From UHGV virus genome UHGV-0106827: a stretch of 35,998 nucleotides of DNA. The stretch is one strand, 5' to 3'. The position numbers were made by a program, and so were the translations under genes. The stretch's first letter is position 1. The number at the start of each line of letters is the position of its first letter. Source of the DNA: a virus. The notes beneath the pieces are model-generated. The model saw only the letters and a program-made list of their open reading frames with translations, searched no databases and was not told the origin of the DNA. Positions 3,610-27,596 of the stretch are shown here, piece after piece.

Positions 3610-4049
3610 TTGGCTGGGGTGTATGCGTTCTTGCGTTAGCCTTAGCCGATCGCTATTTGCTAAAACGCAAGGACATCACGCATTTAGAACTTGGTGATGT
3701 GGAAATTAAACAGGGCTTCATCCGGGTGCCGTTCAAATACCGGTCTAAATTCCCGTTTTTGCGCGGCGCAACGGTCAGATATTGGATCCGCGATGTTCAG
3801 AAGCCAACGACAGTGATTGAAGGCGAACAACGTTGTCTGACGTCGGCTGAACAGGGCGAAAACAGTGAATGGTTGTACATACCCACTGAATATATGGGTA
3901 AAGGAGAGCGACTGTGGCATTTCAACGTCATGGTTACGCATGGCGACTCGTTCATTAACCCGTTGTATCGGATTTTCCCTGTTACTCAGAAAATCCGCAG
4001 AAGTTACGTAATAAATCTCGCACAGGATGTGTCAGATGACGAAAAATAA
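3606..4049 (+). CDS. lydB: LydB antiholin
   Basis: 147 aa with N-terminal TM segment, overlapping the lydA stop; matches P1 LydB in size and position. Confidence 0.75.
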   Translation: MIGWGVCVLALALADRYLLKRKDITHLELGDVEIKQGFIRVPFKYRSKFPFLRGATVRYWIRDVQKPTTVIEGEQRCLTSAEQGENSEWLYIPTEYMGKGERLWHFNVMVTHGDSFINPLYRIFPVTQKIRRSYVINLAQDVSDDEK

Positions 4050-4638: not shown

Positions 4639-4639
4639 C

Positions 4640-6559
4640 ATGGAACAGTTCAATATCAATAAAGGGGTGACGATTAAGCCGGGGCTTGACGTGCTTCCCC
4701 CGCCGGTGACTGATGATGAATATCGCGCATTAATGGCTGGTGAGGACCGCTATCTGATGACGGAATCCAACACCCTGGAGGAAATCGAGGCAACGTTCTT
4801 CTATGACACGCCGATCCACTGGTGTGCTACGGATTTATTGGAGGCGATTAGTTCTACTCGTTTGCAGTTACACCGGACCATGCAGGCATTTGTCCGGGCA
4901 TTGAACCAGAAGCTGAATGGTACCGGAATCTCTGCGGGGAGTGATAAAACGGGGGATGTGGCCCAGAGCGGCGCGCGCGCGATCGGCGGCGCTGAAATTG
5001 GCCGGGCACGTAACGTTAACGGGCTGCCAGTCCTGCCAGCCATTATTCCGCTCAGTGATGGTCAGACTATCAGCATTCTGTTTCATAGCCCGACAGCGGA
5101 AAACCGGATCACCAATAGCGATACGCTGGTTGCTTTCCAGTTCTTACTGAATAAAAAAGACGTTACTCACACCGTTGCTCCGATGAGTGGACGTGATATG
5201 ACGCTGGCGCAGGTCACCATGAAACTTGCCAACCTTGCAGAGAAAAACTCGGCAAAATTCCAGCGTGCGCAGAAGAAGAAAAAAGCCCTTGTTGATGAAA
5301 TAACCCAACTACAGGCTGACAGTGACCAGAAAGAGGATGCCATGAGCGACCTCGCGGATCAGGTGGCAGCGGTAGAAGGGCAGAAGGCAGATCTGGAGCA
5401 GAAAATTAACGCTGTTGCATCGGAAGCGGATTCTCTTTATGAAGAGAATGAGCGTTTGCAGACGGAGATTGATCAGCTCAATCGCACTGGTGGGCGCGAT
5501 ACCATTGCTCCAGCGGGGATGACTGGTGGGCACTCTCGCGCGCTGACGGATCGCCTTGCCAGTATCAAAAATCGTATGCATATGGAAGGGGAAGCGATGC
5601 TCAGTAATGGTGCATCAATGAAGCAATTCATTGGGGATGGCGAAGGGTATATCCAGTTAACCGATCCGGATGGCAGCGTATACATGATCAAGGCTAAATC
5701 CATACAGGGTGTGGACATGGCAGATGCGATCGGCAAGCTGTTTAAAGCCTATAAAGCGGGTAATGTATCGGAATATCTGGTCCAACCAGAAGAACATAAA
5801 CCGGAAAACGTCGAACCTGAACCAGCGGAGGATACCGGTAGCTCTTCGCCTGAACCAGAAGTCTCTGTAGGTGCATATCGATATGCCCTGCAAATGCGTC
5901 CGGCGGCCCCTGGCGCAATACCTGAAGGTAACAAAGCAATTCTGCCGCGCCCTGATGAAGGTGACCCGTATTATGAATATGCACGCTACGGCATTGCTAC
6001 TTTCGATACCCCGCTTTCTGATCAGCAAATGAGTGAGTACGACCTGAAGTTATTGCCTCGCGAGGATTCTTTCGACTTCCTGGCGAAGACACTTACTAAT
6101 GGTCCGTTTGGCAAATATGCACAAAAAGCTCTGGAGCTGGCCACCAGCTCACCAGACGAGTTCCGCGTAATGCTGAAAACTCAGTTTCAAAAAACTTTCC
6201 CCAATATTGCGTTTCCTGGGGGCGCTGGCACCGAGAAAATGGTGCAGAGCATGATCAATGCATTGCAGGCCGAAGTCGGTGAGATTACTCAGCCAGAACC
6301 GGCCCCGGCACAGCCTGATGAAACGGTTAGCGAAGCAGATGCAGAGGCTAATAAAGCCATTGAATATCTCAATAACGTGATGGATATACAAAGCACTGAC
6401 ATGGCGGAGATCCGTAACGCCCGGGGCAATGTCCGGGAAGCGATTGCAGCCCTTCAGGCTGCCGGACGTTTTGAGGAAAACGAAGAGCTGGTTAACGGCG
6501 CAGCTCGCCACCTGGCTGATCTGTTGGTAGCAATCCAGAAAGCGGGGGTAGCGGCATGA
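4640..6559 (+). CDS. darA: DarA antirestriction protein (virion internal protein)
   Basis: 639 aa, matching P1 DarA size and operon position; coiled-coil central region. Confidence 0.75.
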   Translation: MEQFNINKGVTIKPGLDVLPPPVTDDEYRALMAGEDRYLMTESNTLEEIEATFFYDTPIHWCATDLLEAISSTRLQLHRTMQAFVRALNQKLNGTGISAGSDKTGDVAQSGARAIGGAEIGRARNVNGLPVLPAIIPLSDGQTISILFHSPTAENRITNSDTLVAFQFLLNKKDVTHTVAPMSGRDMTLAQVTMKLANLAEKNSAKFQRAQKKKKALVDEITQLQADSDQKEDAMSDLADQVAAVEGQKADLEQKINAVASEADSLYEENERLQTEIDQLNRTGGRDTIAPAGMTGGHSRALTDRLASIKNRMHMEGEAMLSNGASMKQFIGDGEGYIQLTDPDGSVYMIKAKSIQGVDMADAIGKLFKAYKAGNVSEYLVQPEEHKPENVEPEPAEDTGSSSPEPEVSVGAYRYALQMRPAAPGAIPEGNKAILPRPDEGDPYYEYARYGIATFDTPLSDQQMSEYDLKLLPREDSFDFLAKTLTNGPFGKYAQKALELATSSPDEFRVMLKTQFQKTFPNIAFPGGAGTEKMVQSMINALQAEVGEITQPEPAPAQPDETVSEADAEANKAIEYLNNVMDIQSTDMAEIRNARGNVREAIAALQAAGRFEENEELVNGAARHLADLLVAIQKAGVAA

Positions 6560-6933: not shown

Positions 6934-9921
6934 ATGAGCTTAAGCGATCAGGTGGTAATGGCCACCAGCATAGAAACGCTGATCGAGCTGCTAAAGAACC
7001 TGCCCGATTATGGGCGGGTTTCGTATGTGGTGACAGCGAAGGGAGACGAGGTAAAAACAGCGTTTGATATCGTCGATGCCTCAGTTCTTTTGGTATCCAA
7101 TACTCTGGATGGGAAAATTAATCCAGACTATCCCCAGGAACTTCAGCCGCGCGACCGGACCCGCGCATCCAGCCTTCTTCAGGTCAACCAGATATCCAAG
7201 GATTTGCGTCCTGCCCAGCTTACCGATTCCGGTTTATCCAGCCATGGCGCGCCAATAATTGGTGAGGACAATGCCGTTGAGTCAGGTAATGGGCGGACCA
7301 TGGGGATCATTAAAGCCTATCAGGACGGTAATGCGGATCGGTATCGGGAGTACCTGATTGAACATGCGACCGAATTCGGCATACGGCCTGAAAAGGTTGA
7401 ATCAATGACGGCTCCGGTACTGGTGCGCCGCCGGTTAACGAAGGTTGACCGTGTTCAGTTTGCCAAGGACTCAAATATTTCTGATCTCCAGGAAATGGCA
7501 GCCAGTGAAAAGGCTTTTGTTGATGCCGACAGCATAACACCGGCGATGATGGCGTTGTTTAACCCGTCAGAAAGTGGAGATCTGCTTAGCCGCAGTAATG
7601 ACGCGTTTATTCGCGGATTCATGACGCAAGTTGGTGCCACACAGGCTGCTGGCCTTGTAACGGAAGATGGGCGACCAACACGGCAACTTGTAGACCGTAT
7701 ACAAAACGCGATCTTTGCCAAGGCATATAAGGATGCGCGCCTGGTAAGGATGGTTGCAGAAGAACCTGATCCGGATATGCGTAATGTTCTGACGGCGCTT
7801 AATGCGGCAGCCAATGATTTTGTCCAGATGCAGGCTTTATCAGGAGAAGCGCACAAGCAGGCTGTGACAACTATTGTTGATGGCATTGAGACAGCGGATA
7901 GCCTCGATAAAAAGGCGCTGGCGGCATTGAAAGATGCGGTAGACCTGGTAAGGCAATCGAAGGAGTCAGGCCAGCATATTACCGATGTTATTGCTCAGGG
8001 GGATATGTTCAGCGAAACGGCCTCGGAAGTGAAAGCACTCGCGTTTTTCATCGTCGCGAATAACCGTAGTGCGAAGCGTATGGCCACCGCCTTTAAATTG
8101 ATGGCTCAACGTATCAATGATGAGTTACAGCACCAGGGCCAGGCGCTCGGGGATATGTTTGGCGGCGGCGATGTGTCGTTACAGGATATCCTTCGCCAGG
8201 TATCTCAGGAACTGGAAAACGAAGGTATGCAAGGGATATCCGGCGGTCTTTTCGAGTCCGTTTCCGGCGGTAGTTACAACGGTGTTGCTCCATATACCAG
8301 TTTGCTATTACATCGGGCATCCGGCATCAAAGACATTATTCATCTGATCAGGCTGCTTTCCCGTACAGATCCCCAGGATGAGCAGCTTGTACAAGTGCTT
8401 GCGCATTTTGTCCGAATGCCTGTTGCCGACGTGAAAAAATGGTGCCGATTATTCGGTATCAGCAATTCGTTACTTCGCGGCTTGTTAAATCACGCATCCT
8501 CCCTTGGGCGCGACGGCTTTGATGAGATAGCGCAGGCGATACAAAACGGAGATATGCCACCAGCTATTGACTGGTTTTCCATTCGCCCAACTAGGGTGAA
8601 AGCATTCCTTAGTGCGGCGCAATCAGCATCACCATTGGCAGAAATGGTTCAGAGGTTATCGCTCATATTCACAGACCATACCGCGTTGGGGGATCTGACT
8701 CTGGACGAGATGAAAGAAGCCTCCATTCAGTGGGCCGATCAACAAAATGAGGTTAACTCAGACTTCTTGCCAGCATTCAGGAAGGCCGTTAGTAAAGCGG
8801 ATGATGCCCGTGGAATTCTGAAGGCATTTAAGGCATTGCAAAGTCGTGTTAATAAACATGTCGGTGATATCGATGCGGTAACGGCGGAAGGCCGGGATAT
8901 CCTTAAAGAGCACGGCATAACGCCAGAGTTTATTGATGAGATCAGGACTGATATGCAGCGTGAGGTCGTATCGTCCCTGCAAATCGTAGCCAGAGCGTTG
9001 GCGGATGCTAATCCGAAGAGTGCGGCCATTGTTAACCGTGTTATTGGTGATATTGAAGCATCGGAGGGCATGGGGGCGCTGAAACTCTTCCTTTCGCGAG
9101 CGTTTAATCCTAACGGCAATATTCTTCCTGGCATTATTGGTGAGGCTAAAAGGTATGTCAGTGAAGAAGAACTTGAGCAGCTTGACCAGCTACTCAAACG
9201 ATTTTCATATATCCCGCAGAAACGCTGGCAAATGAATCAGCGAAGTATGGATTCGGTCTACGAGAAAGTGTTATCTGCCATGAACAGTGCGATCGCCAAC
9301 TCATCCGTATCAGAAGAAAAAGCTCTTGAGTGGGCCGACTCTTTTATCACGGAAGAAGTGGAAGAAGCCCGCGCTGGACAGAATGGTGGAATAGACTTGC
9401 GCAAGGAACTTTCTGATATTTACCGTCTGACAGGCGGGAAAATATCAACCTTATCAAGGGTAATTCACCACAAGGGTAGGGCGTATGCAAATCTTAATGG
9501 TGTTGTTGCTGTCGATTTGCACGATGAAAATGCAAATGCACTGTGGCACGAGCTGGGTCATCATCTTGAGTACAGTAACCCGGGTTTGTTAGAGAAAGCC
9601 AGGTCATTCCTGAAGGCCAATGTTGAAGGGGATAAGCCATCTTTCGTTAATATCGGTGGGCGTGGCAAGCCTGAATGGTGCTTCAGATCTCGATTGAGTG
9701 ATATTTATATGGCGAAGGTATACCCGCCTGTCTCAGTGAGTAATTCTGGTAAATTTCGACACAAATCTCCGACAATTTCCAAAACGTCAGCAACGGAAGT
9801 GTTCTCTATGGCTCTTCAGTTGTATCATGACAAAGAGGCCGCTGCCGCATCACTGATGAATGGTGACGGATTGCTGGAACTGTTATTAGGTGTGGCAAAG
9901 GAGCTAAATAATGCAGATTAA
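6934..9921 (+). CDS. ddrB: DdrB (dar operon, large protein)
   Basis: 995 aa ORF following ddrA; size and position consistent with P1 DdrB. Confidence 0.65.
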   Translation: MSLSDQVVMATSIETLIELLKNLPDYGRVSYVVTAKGDEVKTAFDIVDASVLLVSNTLDGKINPDYPQELQPRDRTRASSLLQVNQISKDLRPAQLTDSGLSSHGAPIIGEDNAVESGNGRTMGIIKAYQDGNADRYREYLIEHATEFGIRPEKVESMTAPVLVRRRLTKVDRVQFAKDSNISDLQEMAASEKAFVDADSITPAMMALFNPSESGDLLSRSNDAFIRGFMTQVGATQAAGLVTEDGRPTRQLVDRIQNAIFAKAYKDARLVRMVAEEPDPDMRNVLTALNAAANDFVQMQALSGEAHKQAVTTIVDGIETADSLDKKALAALKDAVDLVRQSKESGQHITDVIAQGDMFSETASEVKALAFFIVANNRSAKRMATAFKLMAQRINDELQHQGQALGDMFGGGDVSLQDILRQVSQELENEGMQGISGGLFESVSGGSYNGVAPYTSLLLHRASGIKDIIHLIRLLSRTDPQDEQLVQVLAHFVRMPVADVKKWCRLFGISNSLLRGLLNHASSLGRDGFDEIAQAIQNGDMPPAIDWFSIRPTRVKAFLSAAQSASPLAEMVQRLSLIFTDHTALGDLTLDEMKEASIQWADQQNEVNSDFLPAFRKAVSKADDARGILKAFKALQSRVNKHVGDIDAVTAEGRDILKEHGITPEFIDEIRTDMQREVVSSLQIVARALADANPKSAAIVNRVIGDIEASEGMGALKLFLSRAFNPNGNILPGIIGEAKRYVSEEELEQLDQLLKRFSYIPQKRWQMNQRSMDSVYEKVLSAMNSAIANSSVSEEKALEWADSFITEEVEEARAGQNGGIDLRKELSDIYRLTGGKISTLSRVIHHKGRAYANLNGVVAVDLHDENANALWHELGHHLEYSNPGLLEKARSFLKANVEGDKPSFVNIGGRGKPEWCFRSRLSDIYMAKVYPPVSVSNSGKFRHKSPTISKTSATEVFSMALQLYHDKEAAAASLMNGDGLLELLLGVAKELNNAD

Positions 9922-10219
9922 AATCGCAGCGCCATTAGGCGGAGATGCCATTATCGAATTTGATGATAATGAAGAAGTTTCCGGGCGTTTAAGCATTATC
10001 TCCGGTGACATTACCGAGGACATGATCGCTGAAGCCATAGCTGGGGCAAATCCCAATAGCTATATGGGATTCGTTAACACCCTTGATGCTCCCGCAAGTG
10101 ATGTTCTCCGAACGCTGCATCTTTACGCTGGCTGGTTTGTTGATTGGCCAGCAGTAGATGGTGGCGATGAGGACGACGACGATGATTTTGGTGATCATGT
10201 AGACCAGATCGTATATTGA
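9911..10219 (+). CDS. Small acidic protein, last gene of the dar operon (hxr position in P1)
   Basis: 102 aa, overlaps the ddrB stop, C-terminal DGGDEDDDDDFGD acidic patch; followed by a terminator. Confidence 0.5.
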   Translation: MQIKIAAPLGGDAIIEFDDNEEVSGRLSIISGDITEDMIAEAIAGANPNSYMGFVNTLDAPASDVLRTLHLYAGWFVDWPAVDGGDEDDDDDFGDHVDQIVY

Positions 10220-10221
10220 AG

Positions 10222-10247
10222 AAATCCCGCCAATCGGCGGGATTTTT
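10222..10247. terminator. Rho-independent terminator between the convergent dar operon and the minus-strand operon
   Basis: Perfect 10-bp stem AAATCCCGCC/GGCGGGATTT with loop AATC, followed by TTTTT on the plus strand; an A-run precedes it, so it may act in both directions. Confidence 0.7.
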
Positions 10248-10250
10248 ACC

Positions 10251-11345
10251 TCACGAGAAGCTTTTTTCTGATGTCAGCCAACAGTGCTCGTGCAAATCTC
10301 TTGGTGGTTTTTCGACAAATGCCTCTTCAGCCACATCCTGCCAGGGGATTTGTTTAGCCCATTCAGCTATAGCGTTATGGTTTGCCGAGAATAACGGTAT
10401 TGTATAGGCCTTCAGCCAGTCTAATGTGCTGGAGTTGTGTTTTTGAGCGTGATGTTTCGCATGGTGTTTGGCGATCACGATCGTAGGCACTACCCATTTA
10501 CTACCGTCAGTCATTGTGAAGTGCATATTACGGGGAACAGATGACTTTTCCATCAACTCCCGAATCCCGGGAAATTTCCCCAAGATCAATCGGCGATATT
10601 CATCGCTATTGCGCCCACCAAACTCTTTGGCTTTGAATTCAAGATATGCTTCAGAAACGAGAGGTGAATCCTCTGTGTTTAGAGTTATCGCCGTGAAAAA
10701 ACCAGCAGGATTGTTTTTACTATGGGCCAACCGGTGATGCGAATCATAAAAGTACCCTTTCTCGCGTTCCGATGGTTTCGACAGCAACAGCAGGCGCGAG
10801 TCATAATTGGTTAAATTGCCAGTTATCACTGCATGAGCGCGATCGCTGATTTCCGCCGAGTTAATAACGATGAAAAGATCGTGCGGTCCAGTAAAACCAG
10901 CCAGAGACTCTTCGTTATTCAGACAATAGGTTATATAGACGCATCCCCATGTTTCACTGATATGCACCAACCCTTTGTCAGGGTGTATTCTGAAATAATT
11001 GCCAAGAAAAGGGTGTTTTTGGGTAACTCGCTCCCAATAACGGAACATATAGTCAATTATTGTTTTTCGACTATCGTTAATCGCAGGAGAAACAACCACT
11101 GTACGGGAACACGAATACAGTATTGTTTGCAGGATGCTAATCACTGCCACAATAGAGGTTTCCCCAATACCATGTGGTGTGGTGGCAGTGACTTTGGCTC
11201 CGGTGTTCTTTATCGCGTTAATAATTTTTGCTTGATGAGGTGTTAACTCAATATCAAGCAACTCTTTTGCTGCCAGTTCCCAATTGTCTTTATACCGTTC
11301 TATCAGTGCTAACCAGGCAGATTCATTCTGTATACGATTAATCAC
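10251..11345 (-). CDS. PacB-like terminase large-subunit ATPase-domain paralogue with degenerate Walker motifs, no nuclease domain
   Basis: 364 aa, colinear with PacB (31266-32750) residues ~10-260, e.g. RLLLLSKPSEREKGYFYDSHHRLA...NPAGFFTAITLNTEDSPLV vs [23 protein letters not shown]...[19 protein letters not shown]. Walker A HGTGKS is HGIGET here; Walker B IIDEAS is VINSAE. Confidence 0.7.
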   Translation of the reverse strand: MINRIQNESAWLALIERYKDNWELAAKELLDIELTPHQAKIINAIKNTGAKVTATTPHGIGETSIVAVISILQTILYSCSRTVVVSPAINDSRKTIIDYMFRYWERVTQKHPFLGNYFRIHPDKGLVHISETWGCVYITYCLNNEESLAGFTGPHDLFIVINSAEISDRAHAVITGNLTNYDSRLLLLSKPSEREKGYFYDSHHRLAHSKNNPAGFFTAITLNTEDSPLVSEAYLEFKAKEFGGRNSDEYRRLILGKFPGIRELMEKSSVPRNMHFTMTDGSKWVVPTIVIAKHHAKHHAQKHNSSTLDWLKAYTIPLFSANHNAIAEWAKQIPWQDVAEEAFVEKPPRDLHEHCWLTSEKSFS

Positions 11346-12126
11346 TTTCCACCTCTTCCGTGGTGTTTTCTTGCAGTTCTGTTAATGCAGCACGACATAG
11401 GTTCCGGGCATTGGCTATAGCCACACTTTTGACTTCATCCGTCATCGTGCAGGTAATGTACTGATCGAGTTCTTCAGCGCGGATGATGCTTTTGCCAATC
11501 AGAAACTGTATTTGCCAGAGCAGATCGGCATCCATAATCAGAATTTCTGCCGGGCCTTCAGGGCCAGCCGGGAAGGAAACATAAGACTGTTTGCCCAGGC
11601 CGATAACTCGACAACTTGCTTCAAGAATTGCGCGCTTGAGGTTTGACTTTGTAACGGAAACAGGTTGGTTTTCACCAGTGATTATGCCGTTGATATGGAA
11701 GTGGAAGGGCATGTAGCTTGAAATTCGCTCTACTTTCCATACGCCAGCAAGCGATCCTTCATGCAGCACAATGGGGGTAACCGCGAGTTTCATCTCACCA
11801 TATAACTGCTGGCAGATAGCTGGATTGCTGAATACATCCAAAGGTTCACACTCAAACAGCGGCGCAATCTGCATGAGGTCCATCATGGTCATACCAGGGG
11901 TACGAGCAGTAATGAATCTGCGCATGCCAGTATCCATTGTGCGCCAGATAGCTACACCATGCTTTTTGCTCACTTCTTCAGTAAAGCCAAGGTGGCACAT
12001 GATGGTTTTTTCGATAGCCAGATCAGAGATCGAAACCTTTTCGCCAGGCACACCATCATTATTGATGGTCACTTCGACACTCTGACCATTACGCAGGCGG
12101 TATTGAATTGCTTTAGTATTTTCCAC
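11338..12126 (-). CDS. Hypothetical protein (middle gene of a three-gene operon)
   Basis: 262 aa; its stop overlaps the start of the downstream PacB-like gene by 8 nt; no recognisable motif. Confidence 0.55.
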   Translation of the reverse strand: MENTKAIQYRLRNGQSVEVTINNDGVPGEKVSISDLAIEKTIMCHLGFTEEVSKKHGVAIWRTMDTGMRRFITARTPGMTMMDLMQIAPLFECEPLDVFSNPAICQQLYGEMKLAVTPIVLHEGSLAGVWKVERISSYMPFHFHINGIITGENQPVSVTKSNLKRAILEASCRVIGLGKQSYVSFPAGPEGPAEILIMDADLLWQIQFLIGKSIIRAEELDQYITCTMTDEVKSVAIANARNLCRAALTELQENTTEEVESD

Positions 12127-17315: not shown

Positions 17316-20300
17316 ATGAACAAGCTATCTATGGGGGTGTTTCGCTGTTCAAGTGTCAGCGAAATATTGAAATACATTAGGGCAATAACATCTCACCGAG
17401 CGCCGATTAGATACGGCGTGGAAAAGGTGGAAGGCAAAAGCTATGACCGACTACGCCGGGAGGCGAATCAGAAGGCGATAGATTTGCTTAATTCGCTGGT
17501 GGACGGCGCGACACTGACAGATGAACAGCGCCAGATCCTGGCTGGGTACACCGGTGAAGGCGGCATTGGCGGGTCCGTCTCCGAATATTACACACCAAAG
17601 CCGATCGCTGAAGGTGTCTGGGAGATCATGAAGCTCTACGGCGCGGACGTAGGTAACACTCTGGAACCATCGGCGGGAACCGGCGTTTTTAATGAGACAA
17701 AACCGGTTGGTACGGTGATGACCGCGACTGAGATCAGCAGTGTTTCCGGTCGTATAAACCAGTTGTTACACCCGGAAGACAGCGTACAGATTTCCCCGTT
17801 CGAACAGCTGGCTATAAGCACGCCTAACGATTCATTCGACCATGTTGTGGGTAACGTTCCGTTCGGCGGTCGTGATAACACACGCAACATCGATAAGCCT
17901 TACGCAGAAGAAACGGACATGGGTTCTTACTTCATGCTCCGCATGCTGGACAAGATAAAGCCAGGCGGATTCATGTGCGTGATTGTGCCGCCGTCCATTG
18001 TTTCAGGTTCAAACATGAAGCGGTTACGCCTGCGCCTATCACGGAAAGCTGAATTTCTTGGTGCCCACCGCTTGCCTACCGGTACTTTTGACGCAAACGG
18101 GACCAGTACAGTCGTTGATGTGGTGCTGATGCGCAAACATCCGGCAGAGATGGCTGAGAAAATCCCCCTGGTGGATGAAAGCACTCTTGAATCGGCAAAT
18201 GTGCTTTGGCCAACGTTTATTTCTGGCAAGTGGTTTGAAAAGGATGGCCGCCGGTTTGTTCATGGCACCCAGGAAAAGGGCTTCCAGGGGCGTATTGAGG
18301 TTCGTGCCGACGGTCAGATTGATAACCAGGCTCTTAAAGCGAAGCTGATTCATCGTTTCGAAAGCCGTATCGACTGGTCTTTGCTCGATATGGCTGAACC
18401 GTCACTGACCGCAGACGTTGTTGGTGAAGGGGAAATGCGCCTGATTAATGGCGTATGGCAAAAATATGCTGGTGGTCGCTGGATTGAAGCTGATGCCGGG
18501 AAGGAACTTAAAATTGATGCTGCCAGTTATGGCGCGGATAGCTGGGAGGCTCTTCAGCGTAACCTGACTACAACAGAAGGCCGTCTCGGTATGACATTTA
18601 CCCAGATGGCAAATGTCCGCGATAAGTACACCACATCAATCAGCGACGATATGGTGCAGCTGGTGGACTGGATTAACAGCCAGCCTGAAAAATACCGTGA
18701 ACGCTTGTATCGTGGGGCGATGATTGGCCGGATGTTAATTGAATATCAGGATATGAAGGCCGCCGGGCATAGTGCTGAACAAATCGAACAGCAGCGCCTT
18801 TCTCTGGTATCCCGTTTGCAGGCAGAGATTGACCGTTTTGGTAACCCTGGTCGCGGTCCGATAGCTAAATTATCGGGAAGCGGTGCGCGCGCCTGGTTTG
18901 CTTTCCGTGGTGCAATTAAGCTGGATGGCACTATTTCTGACGAGCTGACAGGAAAGCTGGTTACGCATGATTCCAGCGCCAGTTATGACTCCACCAGCTA
19001 TCAGGACACCCTGCGTTATCTCTATAGCGATCTTACCCGCGATCCAATCCAGCTCGATGATTTCCGCCTTGCGTTTACCGGCGAATTGCCAGCCAGTGAT
19101 GAAGAGTTGCTTAATTTATTGGCCAGCACTCCTGGTATTGCGGTTTCACCGTATGGCGGGATTGTTCCGTTCGCCCGCGCCACCAGCGGCGACATTAACG
19201 AGATAGTGGCTCCAAAACAGGAATTCCTCGCCACGCTCCCCGACGGTCCAGTAAAGAACAACGTCCTTAATCAGCTGGCAGCGATCGAAGAGAAGCGCAT
19301 CAAGACGCCAGCAGAGAATATCCGGTTTAAGCTCAATAGCCGTTGGTTCGACCGTTCCGTCATTCTGGAGTTTTTGCAGGAAAACGGCTATCCGGATCTG
19401 CGCTATGTGCAGTCAGTGCAGCTGGAAGGCGACGAAATGGTTTCTGACACCTATCACGGTGGTGATGGCCTGTTCGTCGGGCACCGATACGGTGTCGTCC
19501 AGCGCAAGGATAAAGAAACAGGCGAGATCCGCTACGAGTGGGACCGTAAATCAGGTGAAAACGCGACCGGGTTCCCGGCACAGCTGGAAAAGTATCTCAA
19601 TGGTGCGCGTATCGGTGGCAAAGATAGCGCGACGGCGAACGGCTACCGCGAGCAGATGGCACTGCTTGAGGACCAGTTCAATAAGTGGATCAAGACGCAC
19701 GATCGCTACGATGAGCTGGTTGCCAAATACAACGATGTGTTCAATAGCAATATCCCGTTTGAACACTCTGGCGATCCGCTTGGGTTGAAGGGATTAAGCG
19801 GTAAGCGCCAGCCATTTGATTACCAGAATAGCGAGGTGCGCCGACTGTCCGAAGATGGGCGCGGCATCCTGGGCTTCGGCACCGGGCTGGGTAAAACCAC
19901 GACCGCGCTGGCGCTTGAGGCGTTCAACTATGAGAACGGTCGCTCCACCCGTACTGCTTATGTAGTGCCTAAATCAGTGCTGGAAAATTGGTATTACGAA
20001 GCTAAAGAATTCCTGAGTGAAGAGGCATTCAGTAACTACTTGTTCGTCGGTCTTGATGTGCTGATGGATGGCGATCAGATTCGCCAGGTGCCGGTGCTCG
20101 ATGAGAACGGTAAACCTGTTCTTGGTACTGATGGCACTCCAGTTATGCGCGATGCTCTTAAGCTGGCAGATGAAGCCACTATCACGGCGCGGATGAATGC
20201 GATCCCGCACTCAAATTACCGTGCAGTCGTGTTTACCAAAGAACAATACGCCCGCATTCCGCTACGTGATGACACCGTAGATGAGCATGCACAAGACATG

Positions 20301-23300
20301 CTTTATGACTTCGTTGCTGCCGGACGTGTGGCCAGCGCAATGGATTCCGATTCCCATCGCAAAGAGGCGGCGCGTCGCCGGGTATTGTCGGAGTATTCAG
20401 ATACCGGTACCGAAAAAGCAGAGAAGTATCCGTACTTTGAGGATATGGGCTTCGACAGCGTGATCGCCGACGAAGGCCACAACTACCGCAATAGCTATAA
20501 AAATGGTCGCGAAGCGTCACAGCTGGCCTATCTGCCCACCAGCGCGGTGGCGCAATCGGCGCGAGATATGGCAATCAAAAACGCGTACCTGATGAAAAAG
20601 AATGGCGGGCGCGGACCGGTTCTCCTGACTGCAACGCCAGTCGTTAACACCCCGATCGATGCATACAACATGCTTTCTCATGTTCTGCCGAAAGAATACT
20701 GGCAGAAGATGGGGATCTACGGTCCTGATGACTTCGTTAAATTCTTCGGCAAGACCAGGCTGGAAACGGTACAGAAAATCAGCGGTGAAGTTGAAGAAAA
20801 AATGGCGCTGGTGGGCTTTGAAAACCTTGATGCGCTGCGCGGCATATTCCATCGCTGGACAACGCTTAAAACGGCGGAAGACGTTAAGGATACCGTGGAG
20901 ATCCCGGAACTGGACGAACACCAGCAGGATGCACCACTTACGGAAGAACAACTGGCGGCGTATGAAGAATTGCGTCAGCAGGCGGAAGCGGCAGCCAAAG
21001 CCAACAATGGCGTAACGACCTCGGTCAATGAAGACGGCGTGATTGAGCACGAGAAAGCCCGTCCGATCTTCTCAATAATCAGGGATATGGACCGCGTATG
21101 TACTGACATGGACCTGTACTATCGCAGGATCACCTATCGTTTCCTGCCGGAGTACGCCGATGCGGTGCAGCAGCTGGCGGACAGTTTGCCTAAACAAGCC
21201 ACCAGCGAAGACGACGACAGTGATGATTCGATCACGCAGCAATCGCAATACTCCCTGATAGATAAGGGCGAGTTTATTCAGTTGCAGGTACCGGAAGCAT
21301 TTGAGCAGGAAGTGAATAAGCGCCTGGCCAAGTTTGGCATTGACGAACAGACCGTAACTCACCCCGTTACACCCAAATACGCGAAGCTGATCGCCACGCT
21401 GAAGGAGTTTTTCCCGGAAGGTAAGCAAATCATCTTCACCGATGAAAAAACGCAGCACCAGAAGCTCAAGCGCATTATCTGCAATGCTCTTAACCTTGAA
21501 CCTTCAAAGGTGGGTATCCTGAATGCTCAGACGGTTGCCGAGGCAGGTAAAACCGGTAAGAAACTGAAAGCGGTTAAACCACCGAAAGAGCTACCGGATG
21601 AACCAACAGATGCACAGATAGCGAAATACAACGAGCAAATGGCTCTGTATGACGCCTATATCGCGCAGCAAAATGAAATGTCGCTGGGTGGGCTGGAAAA
21701 GATTGCTGCCGACTTCCAGGAGGGCCGGACTCCGATCATCATCTGCAACAAAAAGGCAGAGGTGGGTATCAACCTGCATCGAGGAACGACTGACATCCAT
21801 CATCTGACGTTGCCATGGACACCAGCCAGTATCGCACAGCGTAACGGTCGCGGTGCCCGAGTTGGTTCCAACCGTGCAAGCGTTCGCGTTCACTACTACT
21901 GCGGCAAGGGTTCTTTCGATGAATACCGACTGAAGACGCTGAAGCGTAAAGCAGGCTGGATCTCCGATATCCTCCGTTCAGATAAGTCAGAAATGGAGAA
22001 CGCCGACGCCAACGATATGATCGAAATGCAGATGTATACCGCTAAGGATGATGGCGAACGTCTGGCAATGATGCAGGTTCAAATGGATAAGGCGAAAGCC
22101 GCGCAACGCGCTCGCCAGAAAGAACAGGCTACTATCGACCTTCAGAACTACATCAAGGCGCAGCACGCAGCTGGCGAGGATGTGGAGGTACTTACCGCTG
22201 AATTAGAGCGAAGCAAAGCGGAACTTGAAAAGACCACCGCCGAGGTAGCTAAATTCAAACAGGCGGTAATGGCCAAAGCAGCTGATAACGCAGACTGGAA
22301 GGCCCGCTGGGGGAGCGTCCATCACACAGACCGTATGTTGTTAGCACAGTATCGCGCGTCGTTGAAAAACGCCATTCAGCGCAAGGCTAATATCTCTCAA
22401 GCCATCTCCCGCTATGAGAAATTATTGAACCGTACTCAGAAGGCCGCGACGGATATCAAACGCCTGCGCCCGCTGGTGGAGGATGCAATAAATAAAGGCA
22501 TTCTGGATGTTGATCCTGACCTGGTTAACCATGCGAGTGAGTTCCTTGTTATCGGCGATCGCTCATGGCGTGTAGGCCAATACTACGATTGTGCCGGTGA
22601 TATCGTTCGCATTAAGTCGCTGGACTTCGACAGCCAGCGCGCAGACGTGGAGATCATCTTTACCTTCAAAGGCACCAAATCGGGTAACTGGGATGTGAAG
22701 ACGCTGGATAAACAGGTGGATGTAACTCCCGATGAAGATGCTGTTATGCAGAAAATCAGTGGTGGCGTCTCCATCGCCGGGATTAACGACATCATTTCCT
22801 GTGACGATTTCTACCGTTTCCAGCAGCGCGGCATGATCAAAATCACTGACTCGTACGGCGTTCAGACTACAGAGTCAGGCTATAGCATTGATTTTGTTGG
22901 TACCTATACGGACCCACTGAAGCATGCGGTTTACCCGGATCGCCGTGACGGCGCGCTGAAGTCGTCAATTGCAAAATGGGTGCTTGGTATGATGTCGGAA
23001 GGGAATAACCGCCAGATCCGTTCGGCAGAAACATTCCTGGTTGAATTGTTTGGCTCCAATTATGGCGATGTAATCGCGTCATACGGAGATACGCTATCCC
23101 CTGAAGCAATTCAGGAGAAAATAGCGGATGCGATCGCCAGAATGCCGGAAAAAACAAGCCAGGGGGCTACTCGTAACGGGGATTCTGAACTTGAAGTCAC
23201 CAATGCCATTTTCGGTACCAATGAGTTCCGGGCGTCAGATTATGAGATCACCACAGCACAGTTTGGCACCATTGGCATTTACAGCAATAAAGCCGAGATC

Positions 23301-24083
23301 AAGCAGGCAATGGACGCAGCAAGCGCGCGCATCGCAGCAGAACGGGAAGCCAATCTGAATCATGCAGTCGCCGCGCTGACTCAATCGTGGGTAACAGCAA
23401 TCAGGGAGGCCGCCACCACAGGGAAAATCACACCTGCAATAGCGGATGTCGTAAACGACGGCTCTAAATTTATGGATGCCTATCAAATGGATGCGGTGAA
23501 GTTGCCATCAGCCTATGGTCAACTCAGCTATCGCATGACCTACAACCTGGTATCAATGTTTTCCGACCTTGCCATCCTTGGGCTGGTGGATCTTAACGAG
23601 GTTACGCCGGAATTGCTCAGCATGCGCAAGAATCATGTGGAGATATTGCAGAGAATTAACACGGTTCTTGCCGGGCGCACCGATGAAGAGAAACAGGCCG
23701 ACGCTGATCGGATAAACCTGGCCCTTGGCAACATCACGGAGGAAGAGATTGCCGCCAGAAACGAGAAACAAGAAGAGTTATCATCAATACAGGGTGATGC
23801 CACCAGCATAGCTCAGTCTCTTGGTCTGAATTATCGCGTATCCACCGCCGACCTGAAGATGATGTACGCACCAAAATTCGCCGCTGGCGAGGTATTTGGG
23901 CTTCAGGAAGCCTCAGGCATGAAAGGCGTTCTTTTCCGTGCGAAAGACGCAATCAAGGCGAAATTCGGCGCTCGCTGGCTGCCAGCGAAGGCGAAGAACA
24001 GCGATTTCCCGGGTAACTGGTGGATTATCGAGACAAAACACAACGTGGCGGACGTTCTGGCCGTCATCCAACAATACGCATAA
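17316..24083 (+). CDS. darB: DarB antirestriction protein (methyltransferase plus DExH helicase giant protein)
   Basis: 2255 aa; ATG with AAGGA 6 nt upstream; SAM-binding-like LEPSAGTGVF and VGNVPFGG motif N-terminally; helicase Walker A GFGTGLGKTTT and DExH box VIADEGHNY; size matches P1 DarB. Confidence 0.85.
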   Translation: MNKLSMGVFRCSSVSEILKYIRAITSHRAPIRYGVEKVEGKSYDRLRREANQKAIDLLNSLVDGATLTDEQRQILAGYTGEGGIGGSVSEYYTPKPIAEGVWEIMKLYGADVGNTLEPSAGTGVFNETKPVGTVMTATEISSVSGRINQLLHPEDSVQISPFEQLAISTPNDSFDHVVGNVPFGGRDNTRNIDKPYAEETDMGSYFMLRMLDKIKPGGFMCVIVPPSIVSGSNMKRLRLRLSRKAEFLGAHRLPTGTFDANGTSTVVDVVLMRKHPAEMAEKIPLVDESTLESANVLWPTFISGKWFEKDGRRFVHGTQEKGFQGRIEVRADGQIDNQALKAKLIHRFESRIDWSLLDMAEPSLTADVVGEGEMRLINGVWQKYAGGRWIEADAGKELKIDAASYGADSWEALQRNLTTTEGRLGMTFTQMANVRDKYTTSISDDMVQLVDWINSQPEKYRERLYRGAMIGRMLIEYQDMKAAGHSAEQIEQQRLSLVSRLQAEIDRFGNPGRGPIAKLSGSGARAWFAFRGAIKLDGTISDELTGKLVTHDSSASYDSTSYQDTLRYLYSDLTRDPIQLDDFRLAFTGELPASDEELLNLLASTPGIAVSPYGGIVPFARATSGDINEIVAPKQEFLATLPDGPVKNNVLNQLAAIEEKRIKTPAENIRFKLNSRWFDRSVILEFLQENGYPDLRYVQSVQLEGDEMVSDTYHGGDGLFVGHRYGVVQRKDKETGEIRYEWDRKSGENATGFPAQLEKYLNGARIGGKDSATANGYREQMALLEDQFNKWIKTHDRYDELVAKYNDVFNSNIPFEHSGDPLGLKGLSGKRQPFDYQNSEVRRLSEDGRGILGFGTGLGKTTTALALEAFNYENGRSTRTAYVVPKSVLENWYYEAKEFLSEEAFSNYLFVGLDVLMDGDQIRQVPVLDENGKPVLGTDGTPVMRDALKLADEATITARMNAIPHSNYRAVVFTKEQYARIPLRDDTVDEHAQDMLYDFVAAGRVASAMDSDSHRKEAARRRVLSEYSDTGTEKAEKYPYFEDMGFDSVIADEGHNYRNSYKNGREASQLAYLPTSAVAQSARDMAIKNAYLMKKNGGRGPVLLTATPVVNTPIDAYNMLSHVLPKEYWQKMGIYGPDDFVKFFGKTRLETVQKISGEVEEKMALVGFENLDALRGIFHRWTTLKTAEDVKDTVEIPELDEHQQDAPLTEEQLAAYEELRQQAEAAAKANNGVTTSVNEDGVIEHEKARPIFSIIRDMDRVCTDMDLYYRRITYRFLPEYADAVQQLADSLPKQATSEDDDSDDSITQQSQYSLIDKGEFIQLQVPEAFEQEVNKRLAKFGIDEQTVTHPVTPKYAKLIATLKEFFPEGKQIIFTDEKTQHQKLKRIICNALNLEPSKVGILNAQTVAEAGKTGKKLKAVKPPKELPDEPTDAQIAKYNEQMALYDAYIAQQNEMSLGGLEKIAADFQEGRTPIIICNKKAEVGINLHRGTTDIHHLTLPWTPASIAQRNGRGARVGSNRASVRVHYYCGKGSFDEYRLKTLKRKAGWISDILRSDKSEMENADANDMIEMQMYTAKDDGERLAMMQVQMDKAKAAQRARQKEQATIDLQNYIKAQHAAGEDVEVLTAELERSKAELEKTTAEVAKFKQAVMAKAADNADWKARWGSVHHTDRMLLAQYRASLKNAIQRKANISQAISRYEKLLNRTQKAATDIKRLRPLVEDAINKGILDVDPDLVNHASEFLVIGDRSWRVGQYYDCAGDIVRIKSLDFDSQRADVEIIFTFKGTKSGNWDVKTLDKQVDVTPDEDAVMQKISGGVSIAGINDIISCDDFYRFQQRGMIKITDSYGVQTTESGYSIDFVGTYTDPLKHAVYPDRRDGALKSSIAKWVLGMMSEGNNRQIRSAETFLVELFGSNYGDVIASYGDTLSPEAIQEKIADAIARMPEKTSQGATRNGDSELEVTNAIFGTNEFRASDYEITTAQFGTIGIYSNKAEIKQAMDAASARIAAEREANLNHAVAALTQSWVTAIREAATTGKITPAIADVVNDGSKFMDAYQMDAVKLPSAYGQLSYRMTYNLVSMFSDLAILGLVDLNEVTPELLSMRKNHVEILQRINTVLAGRTDEEKQADADRINLALGNITEEEIAARNEKQEELSSIQGDATSIAQSLGLNYRVSTADLKMMYAPKFAAGEVFGLQEASGMKGVLFRAKDAIKAKFGARWLPAKAKNSDFPGNWWIIETKHNVADVLAVIQQYA

Positions 24084-24116: not shown

Positions 24117-24557
24117 ATGGCCACACTATCTGATACAATAAAACCGAATAAAACATATCTTGAGGCGGTACTCCGTACAGCGTTGTTAGGAAAGACAGAA
24201 GACGAATACGTTGATTTCTTCCTGTCAGGGCTACGCGGGCGATTACTGAAAAATCCCCGCCTGTACCGCAGCTATGGTCCATACTGGCCGGAAATTAAAA
24301 AATTATTACTGGAGCGCGGTTATGGTAATTTCGGTCGTCTCGTTGACCGTGACGTTCGCAAAATTTACCGTTATGACCGCCCGGCGCTAACACTCATAGC
24401 CGCGACGCTCTACAGCCAGGAGCGTTTTGATAATGGTCAGATATACTCAGCCTGGCATTTACTGCCAGTGCCTGAAGAAGTTGACGACCAGGACTATGAG
24501 TTTGAGTCTTACGATTTGGAAGTTGAAGCCTTGGCACAGGCTGGAGAGAAAACTTGA
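24117..24557 (+). CDS. Small protein downstream of darB (ulx-like position)
   Basis: 146 aa, normal GC content, immediately follows darB. Confidence 0.45.
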   Translation: MATLSDTIKPNKTYLEAVLRTALLGKTEDEYVDFFLSGLRGRLLKNPRLYRSYGPYWPEIKKLLLERGYGNFGRLVDRDVRKIYRYDRPALTLIAATLYSQERFDNGQIYSAWHLLPVPEEVDDQDYEFESYDLEVEALAQAGEKT

Positions 24558-24802
24558 AAAAGCGATACTACACAGTAAAGCATGGGACGCTACGAGCATT
24601 ACAAGAGTTTGCTGACAAGCATAACGTTGAGGTGCGCAGGGAAGGGGGAAGTAAAGCTCTGCGCATGTACCGTCCGGACGGGAAATGGCGTACGGTCGTC
24701 GATTTCAAAACTAACAGTGTTCCCCAGGGCGTCCGCGATCGGGCATTCGAAGAATGGGAGCAGATCATCATAGATAACGCATTGCTCCTGAATGCTGATT
24801 AA
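24554..24802 (+). CDS. Small basic protein (lxc-like position)
   Basis: 82 aa overlapping the upstream stop; followed by a hairpin. Confidence 0.45.
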   Translation: MKKRYYTVKHGTLRALQEFADKHNVEVRREGGSKALRMYRPDGKWRTVVDFKTNSVPQGVRDRAFEEWEQIIIDNALLLNAD

Positions 24803-24806
24803 GAAC

Positions 24807-24835
24807 TCTCCGGCCTAGGGAGATTAGGCCGGAGA
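24807..24835. terminator. Hairpin at the left border of the AT-rich island (possible bidirectional terminator or insertion junction)
   Basis: 10-bp perfect inverted repeat TCTCCGGCCT / AGGCCGGAGA with a 9-nt loop, between two convergent genes; no strong U-tract. Confidence 0.45.
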
Positions 24836-24843
24836 TAAATATA

Positions 24844-26148
24844 CTATATAAACTTAGATACAATATCGTGAATCTGTTGTAGCGGGATATCTTCCATCTC
24901 ATTCTTAATAAGAGAGCGGTTAGATGCTGTCAGTGAAGGCCATTTTGTTTTCCAGGCTAGATATGCTCGCCATGAGTAGCCTGTTTCGTAAGGTTTATTC
25001 ATATAAGTCATTGAGTGTTCAACCGCATGTATGTATTTTTTCTCAAAATTGGTTCCTTTTACTTCAAATAAACTACCGAAATAAATAAGCCATTTTGCCA
25101 GGTGTTCATACTGCTCCCATGCGCCAGGCTTTTTAGTAAGCTCTATTTTTTTATCTATTATATTACAAAAAACATTTAATACATTTTCATTATTCCAGCT
25201 ATATCCAGATGATGAAATGGAGGAAATGATATGATAAAAAGAATCCTCTAGCTTCAAGAACTCTATTTTATACTCTCTTCCGTTTTTTATTACCGATTTG
25301 ATTGAGTGCCTCAATTTGTCTTTTATTTTTTTTGCTTCTGGAATTTTATCGTTAAGTTTTCTAAAGAAATCAGATACCTCTGTTTTATCTATAACCCTAA
25401 CCCCATAGCAGGAAAAATAGTAATCTTTAATAGGTTGCAATAGTTCCCCTCGGGAAACAAGGAAAATATTGGAGGACATTACGTTGTCCCGTGAAAATAC
25501 CTTATATTCATTTATAATAGCCTTTAGGTTCGCGTCACTTAGAGAATAGCCAAGGATAACAATAGTGTTTTCATGTAGAACTGTGCTTAGTTTATTAGAA
25601 AAGTAAGAATTACCATTTATAAATCTGAAATAATCCTCGCTAGTAACAACCATGTCTGATGGGGAGTCTATAGAACCGTGAACATGGTAGACTTTAACCT
25701 CACAATTATATTTTGGAATTGGCAGGCCGGGGGTGATTGTACAAGTTCGATTCTCTCCAGCCAGCTTTTCTGCTAACTTGTCATAATTTGTCGTAATTAC
25801 TTTAAATGTGTTTTCTTTGAAAAAGTCTTGAATATATTCAATTGATGGATCAAGTTCGATTGAGGCTATGATTTTCTCAATCTCTTGGTAAATATTTTTC
25901 CCCGAAAGTATAAGTTTTAGTGCAATAACCTGAGCAGCTTCTTCAAGGCTAAGGTCTTTTGCTTTTCCATCAGGAAATAATTCCTCTTTGAGTGAGTCAC
26001 CATCCTTCAATAAACCGCACAGTTGCTCCAATAAAGATTGCCAACTTGGGGCTTTATCATCAGAAACAGCCTTTGAAAATCCAGTGCCTGTAAGAAAGCA
26101 CAGCCTATGTGTAGCCGCTGCATAGGCAATTTCTATATACTCGCTCAT
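24844..26148 (-). CDS. SIR2-like (ThsA-type, SIR2_2 family) NAD+-hydrolase domain protein with an uncharacterised C-terminal domain; candidate defence effector
   Basis: 434 aa. Motifs FLTGTGFS (res ~18-25), VITTNYDKL (catalytic Asn) and VYHVHGSIDSPSDMVVTSEDY (catalytic His) occur with the spacing seen in ThsA/DSR sirtuin-like domains; IVILGYSLSDANL matches the family's FVGFSFTDPNL strand. The gene is markedly AT-rich relative to its flanks. Confidence 0.8.
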   Translation of the reverse strand: MSEYIEIAYAAATHRLCFLTGTGFSKAVSDDKAPSWQSLLEQLCGLLKDGDSLKEELFPDGKAKDLSLEEAAQVIALKLILSGKNIYQEIEKIIASIELDPSIEYIQDFFKENTFKVITTNYDKLAEKLAGENRTCTITPGLPIPKYNCEVKVYHVHGSIDSPSDMVVTSEDYFRFINGNSYFSNKLSTVLHENTIVILGYSLSDANLKAIINEYKVFSRDNVMSSNIFLVSRGELLQPIKDYYFSCYGVRVIDKTEVSDFFRKLNDKIPEAKKIKDKLRHSIKSVIKNGREYKIEFLKLEDSFYHIISSISSSGYSWNNENVLNVFCNIIDKKIELTKKPGAWEQYEHLAKWLIYFGSLFEVKGTNFEKKYIHAVEHSMTYMNKPYETGYSWRAYLAWKTKWPSLTASNRSLIKNEMEDIPLQQIHDIVSKFI

Positions 26149-26204
26149 TACTTACTCCATTTACTTATAGTTCTACGGAGAAGTATACCCTAATGCATTG
26201 ACGT

Positions 26205-26993
26205 TTATAGATAATTTCCTTTTCCTGTTAATACTCCCTTAGGCACCTGTTTTTGTGCCAGCGTTTGGGTCCCGCGAATTATGTTAATCAGAGGGCTTAG
26301 TAACGATGGTTCCTGGCGTGCCTCAACTTCTCCAGCCATTGCCCTGATGTAGTCGGCGCTGGCAACGTTGTTGTATTCCGTCGCAAAGCAACATAGTAAC
26401 GTCAGAACATGCTCTGTCGTTATTTCGCTCCAGTTGATGTTGAAAAATTCATCGCCTTTTTTATCGTGTTCGGAATCGAAGATGCTTTGGTGGAGGATGT
26501 ATTTGCCGGATTCCTTGCGCGGTAACTTGATTGCTTTCTGGCGTTCCAGCTCCTTATAAATCTGCATTGCCTCAATTAGTACCGGCCTGCCGTTCATGAA
26601 GGGATCGCGCAACCTTACACGCTGGCCAACTCGACCAGTAATAAAGCTGTTTTCCTCTTCCACCAGCACGATAAAACCCTTTTCCTCTTTTTCTCGCAAT
26701 TCGCGCAGCAGCTGGAGTTCCATATCGCGGCGGCGTTCAGGGTAGCTGGTCCGCTCAGCCATTATTAGCTCATTGTTGATCCATGCAGCAGTCATTGACG
26801 CCGGTTTGCCGACGCTCATCGAAACAACGCATATTTTCTTATCCATAGCGCCCCCTACAAAAAAGAAAAGCCACCAGCGGCGGCTTAGCAATACAACTGA
26901 AGGTAGCGCCCGGTACTCAGACTGTGCCGTCCATGGAATATTTGAAAAGGGATCCATCCGTACCGGGCATGTGATGATTCTGACTGAAGTCAC
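26205..26993 (-). CDS. Mat-like protein (position of the P1 particle maturation gene; identity not verified)
   Basis: Track ORF 262 aa; a likelier start is ATG 26844-26846 (213 aa) with a G-rich SD. Normal GC; lies between ref and the island. Confidence 0.45.
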   Translation of the reverse strand: MTSVRIITCPVRMDPFSNIPWTAQSEYRALPSVVLLSRRWWLFFFVGGAMDKKICVVSMSVGKPASMTAAWINNELIMAERTSYPERRRDMELQLLRELREKEEKGFIVLVEEENSFITGRVGQRVRLRDPFMNGRPVLIEAMQIYKELERQKAIKLPRKESGKYILHQSIFDSEHDKKGDEFFNINWSEITTEHVLTLLCCFATEYNNVASADYIRAMAGEVEARQEPSLLSPLINIIRGTQTLAQKQVPKGVLTGKGNYL

Positions 26994-27035
26994 TTGTCAG
27001 TTGTCAATTATTTCAGATTAAAAATAATATATTTA

Positions 27036-27596
27036 TTAGTGCATGATGTTTGCCATCTCATAGGCGTCAGCCAGCAACTCCATCTCTGACTTGTTCAGCA
27101 AGGTGAATTCTTTCTTGCCTCCAACCACACCATCGGCATGAACAGGGACCAGCCAGGGGTATTTTTCTCTTACTTCAGCCGGTGCTGCATGCTGGTGGTG
27201 CCATCTACAAAGGGGCAATTGCTTTTTGTGACAACCCGGCGCGGTACGACCGGAGATATGGTGCAGAGATACCTCTTCAGATATTACTCCATGCATGTGG
27301 CAGGCAATGCAGGGGAGAGCGCCAAGAGCATTGGCGATGCTCCGTTCCTCCGCTGTCGATGTTCGCCCCTTCAAGCCACGAGATTTTATCTTTACCGCAC
27401 TTTTCCGCGTTTTGCTGGCTGGTGGGCGCTCTTTCTGTTTAGCGATACGGCGGTCGATAGAATCCCGCATTTTCTGATATTGCGATTCTCGCCAGGCGGG
27501 GTCAGCCAACTTTTCCCGTTGCCGAGCGATCGCTCGTTCTCTGGCTGCCTTCTGCCACTCGCGGCGCTGTTCAAGTTTTTGTTCGATTGTTTTCAT
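27036..27596 (-). CDS. ref: Ref recombination enhancement function (HNH-type endonuclease)
   Basis: 186 aa from MKTIEQKLEQRR, the size I recall for P1 Ref; very basic N-terminus and C-terminal Cys/His cluster CIACHMHG...HHISGR...CHKKQLPLCRWHH; downstream of a C1 operator. Confidence 0.8.
   Translation of the reverse strand: MKTIEQKLEQRREWQKAARERAIARQREKLADPAWRESQYQKMRDSIDRRIAKQKERPPASKTRKSAVKIKSRGLKGRTSTAEERSIANALGALPCIACHMHGVISEEVSLHHISGRTAPGCHKKQLPLCRWHHQHAAPAEVREKYPWLVPVHADGVVGGKKEFTLLNKSEMELLADAYEMANIMH

Follow-up and report, generated by a model that had tools for sequence, protein, structure and literature searches.

A compact SIR2-family protein with a small helical C-terminal domain, a candidate abortive-infection NADase carried by a P1-like phage-plasmid

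The virus genome sequence UHGV-0106827 (35,998 nucleotides; "the window" hereafter means this whole stretch) is that of a P1-like phage-plasmid, and between the core genes lxc and mat it carries a single cargo gene, an intact open reading frame (ORF) for a SIR2-family protein of 434 amino acids. We consider it somewhat probable that this protein is a compact, one-protein, DSR-like abortive-infection enzyme that depletes nicotinamide adenine dinucleotide (an NADase), carried by the phage-plasmid as cargo in competition between mobile genetic elements. Observed directly, and arguing for this reading, are the identity of the enzyme domain and its catalytic residues, a fixed two-domain architecture, the absence of a partner gene, a location in a slot that holds defense cargo, and purifying selection on the gene. 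By prediction, the protein is a SIR2 defense NADase whose small helical domain, a putative sensor or regulator, is new, and it extends a known kind of system rather than founding a category of its own. Many architectures with SIR2 effectors have been described in detail before, and the fold of the C-terminal domain is an ordinary one. An earlier reading made from the letters of the DNA (the sequence-only reading) had taken the carrier for a prophage. This was not borne out: the element is not integrated, and among the identical plasmid records the one that we inspected is typed IncY. In other respects the observations of that reading were confirmed and its cautious interpretation is supported, as none of the computational checks proposed with it spoke against it. 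The gene and the parts of its product are located as follows.

24844–26148, minus strand: SIR2-family ORF, 434 amino acids, ATG start, coordinates including the stop codon (ORF list; Pfam SIR2_2; full-length match to phrog_7567; annotation in PLSDB)
25384–26148, minus strand: predicted SIR2 domain of the NADase type, residues 1–255 (family profile against DSR2; Foldseek; strand and helix pattern of the AlphaFold2 model)
26074–26091, minus strand: T20-G-T-G-F-S25, putative NAD-binding glycine-rich loop
25786–25788, minus strand: codon of Asn121, predicted catalytic Asn
25678–25680, minus strand: codon of His157, predicted catalytic His
24847–25383, minus strand: all-helical HEAT-like solenoid, residues 256–434, putative sensor or regulatory domain

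Residues 117–253 score 83.4 bits with the Pfam family SIR2_2 (PF13289; E=2.2e-23), well above its gathering score of 24.5. The three motifs named in the sequence-only reading are in place, namely FLTGTGFS at residues 18–25, TTNYD at 119–123 and YHVHGS at 154–159, and its choice of catalytic Asn and His agrees with HMMER alignments to solved structures. In these alignments N121 pairs with N112 of BcThsA, which lies in the TTNYD motif, and both ThsA H152 and DSR2 H171 pair with H157, the second His of YHVHGS; the first, H155, is opposite a Lys in both proteins. The motif and catalytic residues are invariant in all 34 aligned family members. The TGTGFS loop is expected to bind NAD from what is generally known of sirtuins. 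SIR2_2 was the only family that Pfam reported, with no match to the canonical sirtuin family, and the sequence has neither CxxC pairs nor a Cys4 Zn-ribbon (Cys occurs only at positions 17, 44, 136, 149, 247 and 327), so the zinc module of canonical sirtuins is missing as well.

A profile built from the family aligned over positions 11–257 with residues 36–272 of DSR2 (E=8e-11), covering the whole SIR2 domain and ending at the domain boundary, while its matches to ThsA and KomC were confined to the SIR2 core. Foldseek with the full model likewise returned DSR2 (best), ThsA and KomC, with TM-scores accounted for by the SIR2 domain alone. These closest solved relatives are all defense NADases, and the best PADLOC matches are the defense models PDC-S25, ThsA, LmuA and Dsr2. 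On these similarities, the SIR2 domain is predicted to act as an NAD+ glycohydrolase.

The C-terminal part is helical, as had been supposed. The AlphaFold2 model of the full-length protein (pLDDT 85.4, pTM 0.85) has an alpha/beta SIR2 domain at about residues 1–255 followed by nine helices (258–432), and the C-terminal domain modeled by itself is again all-helical with a pLDDT of 86.3. It was found to belong to no described family: no sequence match was obtained in Pfam, PADLOC or the PDB chains, and comparison of its fold with the PDB gave nothing beyond generic helical repeats. SLOG, Macro, SAVED and CARF-like folds were not detected. A phmmer search run exhaustively over 1.84 billion representatives placed the domain in only 76 clusters, always at about positions 250–430 of proteins of about 430–480 amino acids, or in fragments, and each of the ten most distant carriers has an N-terminal SIR2_2 domain. 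From this distribution it follows that the two-domain architecture is fixed, with no shuffling of the C-terminal domain onto other effectors. It is less conserved than the enzyme domain, the mean identities to the window protein being 44% and 62%, respectively. The 34-member alignment and the AlphaFold2 model nevertheless list a set of invariant residues (W344, Q346, Y347, W353, Y356, S392, W393, Y396, W399, W403, N410 and R411) as lying on helices 344–360 and 391–405. The suggestion of a new sensor domain thus holds in part. The domain is new by sequence, but its modeled fold is an alpha-solenoid of the ordinary HEAT-like sort, similar in broad type to what has been described for the sensor region of DSR2.

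DSR2 from Bacillus subtilis provides the nearest comparison, being also a single protein in which an N-terminal SIR2 NADase domain is followed by an all-helical repeat region, and, taken over the full SIR2 domain, no solved relative is closer. Two reports describe DSR2 as a SIR2 domain with a helical-repeat region that binds, and is activated by, a phage tail tube protein (PMC11263360, PMC11850899). The two proteins differ greatly in size, about 1000–1200 amino acids for DSR2 (SIR2, MID and CTD) versus 434 here, and the NCBIfam model Dsr2 gave only 30.5 bits, over the SIR2 core, against its cut-off of 1400 bits; the corresponding Dsr1 model gave 21.2 bits against 1400. By analogy with DSR2, the SIR2 domain would be an NAD+ glycohydrolase kept inactive in healthy lysogens, and the C-terminal HEAT-like solenoid of about 180 residues would be its sensor or regulatory part. 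When a competing phage infects, the solenoid would bind some cue that stems from this phage; as with DSR2, a phage protein is the most plausible one. Binding would relieve the inhibition, probably by a change of oligomeric state, and the ensuing depletion of NAD+ would abort the infection, protecting sister lysogens and the plasmid with them.

The family is broad. A search of 5.8 billion proteins gave 661 relatives, and the best 120 of these have 405–465 amino acids (nearly all 431–445) and, save for one near-identical cluster, 54–61% identity. Their hosts include Vibrio, Halomonas, Marinobacter, Pseudoalteromonas, Klebsiella, Pantoea, Pseudomonas, Delftia and others. In a scan of one genome per species, relatives were present in at least 181 species, from Gamma-, Beta-, Alpha-, Zeta- and Deltaproteobacteria and from single metagenome-assembled genomes (MAGs) assigned to Bacteroidota, Actinobacteria and Caenarcaniphilales. 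Among 5426 complete E. coli genomes, 70 have the gene, and 71 of the 72 copies are plasmid-borne. PLSDB holds 66 plasmids with the gene at 90% nucleotide identity or more, mostly of about 95 kb and from E. coli. The collection of phage records that was searched by nucleotide and by tblastn has the gene in none, despite the perfect match to phrog_7567; it was seen in plasmid records only.

The P1-borne alleles fall into three groups (100%, 97.6% and 92.3% nucleotide identity), all intact at 434 amino acids. Their ratio of nonsynonymous to synonymous rates (dN/dS) by the Nei-Gojobori method is 0.12–0.31 overall, which indicates that the gene is under purifying selection. In one close pair of alleles, replacements are overrepresented in the C-terminal domain (dN/dS 0.97); in a test within the same pair, the nonsynonymous to synonymous counts were 11/3 versus 5/11 (Fisher p=0.014, 30 changes). 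Diversifying selection on the C-terminal domain was considered and rejected, as the more divergent allele pairs have dN/dS of 0.13–0.20.

Public sources give the family generic names only. The label in the 66 PLSDB plasmids is just 'SIR2 family protein', and RefSeq uses 'SIR2 family NAD-dependent protein deacylase', which is a generic family label and not an equivalog. The family is without a model in the PADLOC v2 and NCBIfam naming sets that were searched, which explains why genome annotations say 'deacylase'. Our literature search found no study of this SIR2 family. A paper on NAD depletion in V. cholerae was ruled out since it concerns SIR2-HerA, and the SIR2 proteins mentioned in Vassallo 2022 and Rousset 2022 have other architectures.

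Does the protein act by itself? In the window, the SIR2 gene is alone in its cassette of 1.4 kb, which has no antitoxin-like small ORF. The adjacent genes are P1 core genes, with no TIR, HerA, SMC, STAND or pAgo gene among them, and PADLOC gave no matches to the window neighbors. We also surveyed the neighborhoods of full-length members at 65 loci from different species, clustering the 920 ORFs within 3 kb, and no neighbor family was present at more than three of the loci. The clusters identified by Pfam were aconitase (three Acinetobacter loci), histidine kinases, and FecR, the last common to two Pseudomonas loci and an Asticcacaulis MAG. Such recurring clusters are conserved housekeeping context or congeneric synteny and not partners, and the view that the gene is standalone, proposed from the window itself, has been strengthened by the survey. 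Several relatives are in surroundings of mobile or defense genes. A Halomonas relative is in a defense island with HNH, DUF4145, HSDR_N and DUF87 (HerA-type ATPase) genes, a Delftia relative is beside an Mrr nuclease in a small island, and in E. coli lambdoid prophages a relative is located at the integrase-proximal end. PADLOC matches among the 122 nearest flanking ORFs were scattered over TIR/PDC-S66, PDC-S02, a type IV restriction endonuclease, dGTPase, MADS, PDC-S31 and ZorD.

Judged by its sequence, the protein is outside ThsA, DSR1, DSR2, SIR2-HerA, Lamassu, PDC-S25 and the canonical sirtuins. PDC-S25, a single-gene SIR2 candidate, is the best PADLOC match (6.4e-24), but, as with phrog_2695, the alignment is limited to the SIR2 core (model positions 127–278 of 517) and leaves the C-terminal domain unaligned. 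The SIR2 effector LmuA of Lamassu, whose PADLOC model is 433 positions long, matches residues 20–219 with 1.5e-13; however, only model positions 21–221 are covered, and neither LmuB/SMC nor LmuC is nearby. The SIR2-HerA (Nezha) system differs in its HerA gene, which is absent from the cassette and its flanks, and there is no recurrent partner at the 65 loci. The description 'ThsA-type' was loose. The domain is of the immune SIR2 type with TTNYD and HG motifs, the PADLOC ThsA1 models match it at 9e-18, and PDB chains of ThsA match at 1e-9 to 4e-6. These matches are confined to the SIR2 core, though; the protein lacks the SLOG domain of ThsA, it has no ThsB/TIR neighbor in the window or at 62 of the 65 loci, and its closest solved relative over the whole domain is DSR2.

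The remaining three loci bear on a different explanation, in which the protein is a SLOG-less ThsA-like effector whose aromatic-rich C-terminal domain binds a TIR-made nucleotide or a host metabolite, the generator being encoded elsewhere. At these loci a TIR protein of the PDC-S66/ThsB type adjoins the SIR2 homologue with no SLOG-type ThsA nearby, and the protein at the first of them (L018, 7406–8311) is a full-length match to PDC-S66 with E=1.5e-109. Conserved aromatic and polar stripes on two C-terminal helices, and the matches of PADLOC ThsA models to the SIR2 domain, are also consistent with a small-molecule trigger. However, the spacing and orientation of the TIR gene differ in each case (the other two are L044, 4459–5208, and L026, 7979–8845), no TIR gene is adjacent at the other loci or in any P1-like plasmid examined, and PADLOC lists PDC-S66 as a single-gene candidate in its own right. 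A generic solenoid in place of a SLOG, Macro, SAVED or CARF-like fold also speaks against ligand binding of this kind, and we regard this explanation as rather unlikely.

The genomic position of the gene fits a role in defense. The cassette of about 1.4 kb has a GC content of 0.336 compared with about 0.50 in its flanks, and its bounds were set by alignment to the empty site of RCS47, homology to which stops just past the lxc stop codon and restarts at the mat stop codon. Its neighbors are darB (17316–24083), ulx and lxc on the plus strand and mat, ref, c8 and cre on the minus strand; the slot thus borders the anti-restriction genes darB and ulx. The features around the SIR2 gene are the following.

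24803–26204, no strand assigned: cargo cassette in the P1 lxc-mat slot (alignment to the empty RCS47 site; GC content)
24807–24835, minus strand: terminator-like hairpin with an 11-bp stem between the convergent SIR2 and lxc genes (terminator scan)
24554–24802, plus strand: lxc, C1-repressor modulator, a P1 core gene bounding the slot (phrog_2160; annotation in identical plasmids and in P1)
26149–26204, minus strand: spacer of 56 bp from the mat stop codon to the SIR2 ATG, with a GGAG ribosome-binding site at 26155–26158 (sequence)
26205–26846, minus strand: mat, maturation control, a P1 core gene directly upstream (phrog_1837; 642-bp annotation in identical plasmids)
26985–27044, minus strand: mat control region with Omat (27027–27044), the Pmat -35 element TTGACA (27002–27007) and LPmat (identical to annotated P1 elements)

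The cargo in this slot varies across Punavirus genomes. P1 has the EcoP1I type III res/mod genes, RCS47 has none, vB_EcoM-673R5 has a split RelA/SpoT pair matching the PADLOC candidate PDC-S33 (a RelA/SpoT gene is likewise listed for the slot in SJ46), JL22 has a PIN-domain (PIN_12) protein matching the candidate PDC-S34, and Ro157c2YLVW and a P1 isolate with res and mod deleted have an AraC-type regulator with an EAL-domain protein. From this variation we take lxc-mat to be a variable cargo site in which defense genes dominate. EcoP1I is comparable to the SIR2 gene in that it occupies the same slot of the same backbone, presumably in the same role of excluding competing phages. The two differ in that EcoP1I restricts DNA while NAD+ depletion is predicted here, and in that EcoP1I has two genes, oriented opposite to mat, rather than one.

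The expression of the gene is less clear, and it is a caveat to our favored reading. The SIR2 gene is co-directional with mat and 56 bp downstream of it, with the GGAG ribosome-binding site 8 nt 5' of its ATG. Scans of the minus strand of the mat-SIR2 spacer found neither a terminator-like hairpin nor a consensus sigma-70 promoter, and the candidates picked by eye (TTAACA-16-TATAAA and TATACT) are weak and unconvincing. An Rfam scan of the window gave no matches. The C1 operator Omat, the promoter Pmat and the late promoter LPmat are base-for-base as in P1. Transcription may come from read-through of these C1-controlled and late promoters, from a weak promoter of its own, or from both, and the source bears on whether the protein is armed in lysogens. 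With no terminator between mat and the SIR2 gene, expression in lysogens is uncertain.

The same arrangement could mean that the gene serves the life cycle or counter-defense of the P1-like element itself, being co-transcribed with mat upon derepression or in late lytic growth. In that case the enzyme might break down immune signals that the host derives from NAD, act on a phage or host protein by modifying it, or turn on rivals that co-infect the cell while the element is in lytic growth. The conserved Omat and Pmat/LPmat, the same-strand position close behind mat, and the proximity of darB and ulx would all suit such a role, but homologues exist in chromosomal islands without phage context, the slot otherwise carries defense cargo, and the characterized relatives of this SIR2 class are all host-killing NADases. 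We therefore think a life-cycle function quite unlikely.

A further idea joins the ligand and the promoters: the Trp/Tyr-lined C-terminal domain would be a new ligand sensor, through which the phage-plasmid plugs an orphan effector into host immune signaling, and the gene would also be wired to C1 through the mat promoters and armed only on derepression. The diffusible signal may in that case be a TIR-made nucleotide, from a PDC-S66/ThsB-like protein encoded elsewhere, or a host metabolite altered by infection. We hold this combination, too, to be quite improbable. A protein unconnected with phage defense, either a housekeeping-type sirtuin deacylase or a toxin for plasmid addiction, as the RefSeq (PGAP) deacylase name or the benefit of stabilization to a low-copy plasmid carrier might suggest, is highly improbable given the match to SIR2_2 and not to canonical sirtuins, the missing CxxC Zn-ribbon, the lack of an antitoxin-like small ORF in the cassette, and the generic nature of the name.

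If the compact DSR-like protein does protect, it would be among the smallest self-contained SIR2 defense proteins, half the size of DSR1 and DSR2 and with a sensor of only about 180 residues, and thereby a convenient model of how a helical-repeat module gates a SIR2 NADase. The lxc-mat slot would then be a defense-cargo hotspot of P1-like phage-plasmids, with this gene alongside EcoP1I. Both clinical and livestock E. coli often harbor P1-like elements, which carry resistance genes, and this makes the slot relevant to phage therapy. Experiments on the protein would be worthwhile in view of the breadth of the family, its small size, its replacement of EcoP1I and its possible link to the mat promoters.

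Some minor observations concern the cassette and its surroundings. The hairpin at 24807–24835 is brought by the cassette itself and stands in place of a different hairpin at the empty site of RCS47. The edges of the cassette are conserved among the alleles: the 56-bp spacer upstream of the gene (26149–26204) does not vary among the three, and the 41 bp downstream of it (24803–24843) are the same in one other allele and one base off in the other. The coding sequences diverge by up to 7.7% (dS 0.25–0.28), compared with only about 1.5–4% in the flanks of the P1 backbone. The pattern suggests that alleles were exchanged by recombination within the gene or else that the control regions flanking it are strongly constrained. 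The extent of mat depends on its start. As called mechanically, the ORF spans 26205–26993 with a GTG start and 262 amino acids, and phrog_1837 aligns with residues 50–262; in identical plasmids and by the PHROG match, mat begins at an internal ATG and has 213 amino acids, and the mat of P1 is annotated with 250.

Among the surveyed loci, the Acinetobacter members (L070, L071 and L077, at about 3300–5930) are the most divergent, with 44% identity, and each of them follows a same-strand aconitase gene at a distance of 46–51 bp. The ORF of about 870 amino acids upstream of them was considered as a partner and rejected, as it is this aconitase; the context points to an insertion site specific to this lineage and not to a partner in an operon. 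At two E. coli lambdoid-prophage loci with a 56%-identical homologue (L002 and L003), the SIR2 gene is followed by about 3.3 kb without a called gene (8311–11616), and at L004 this junction spans only about 0.5 kb.

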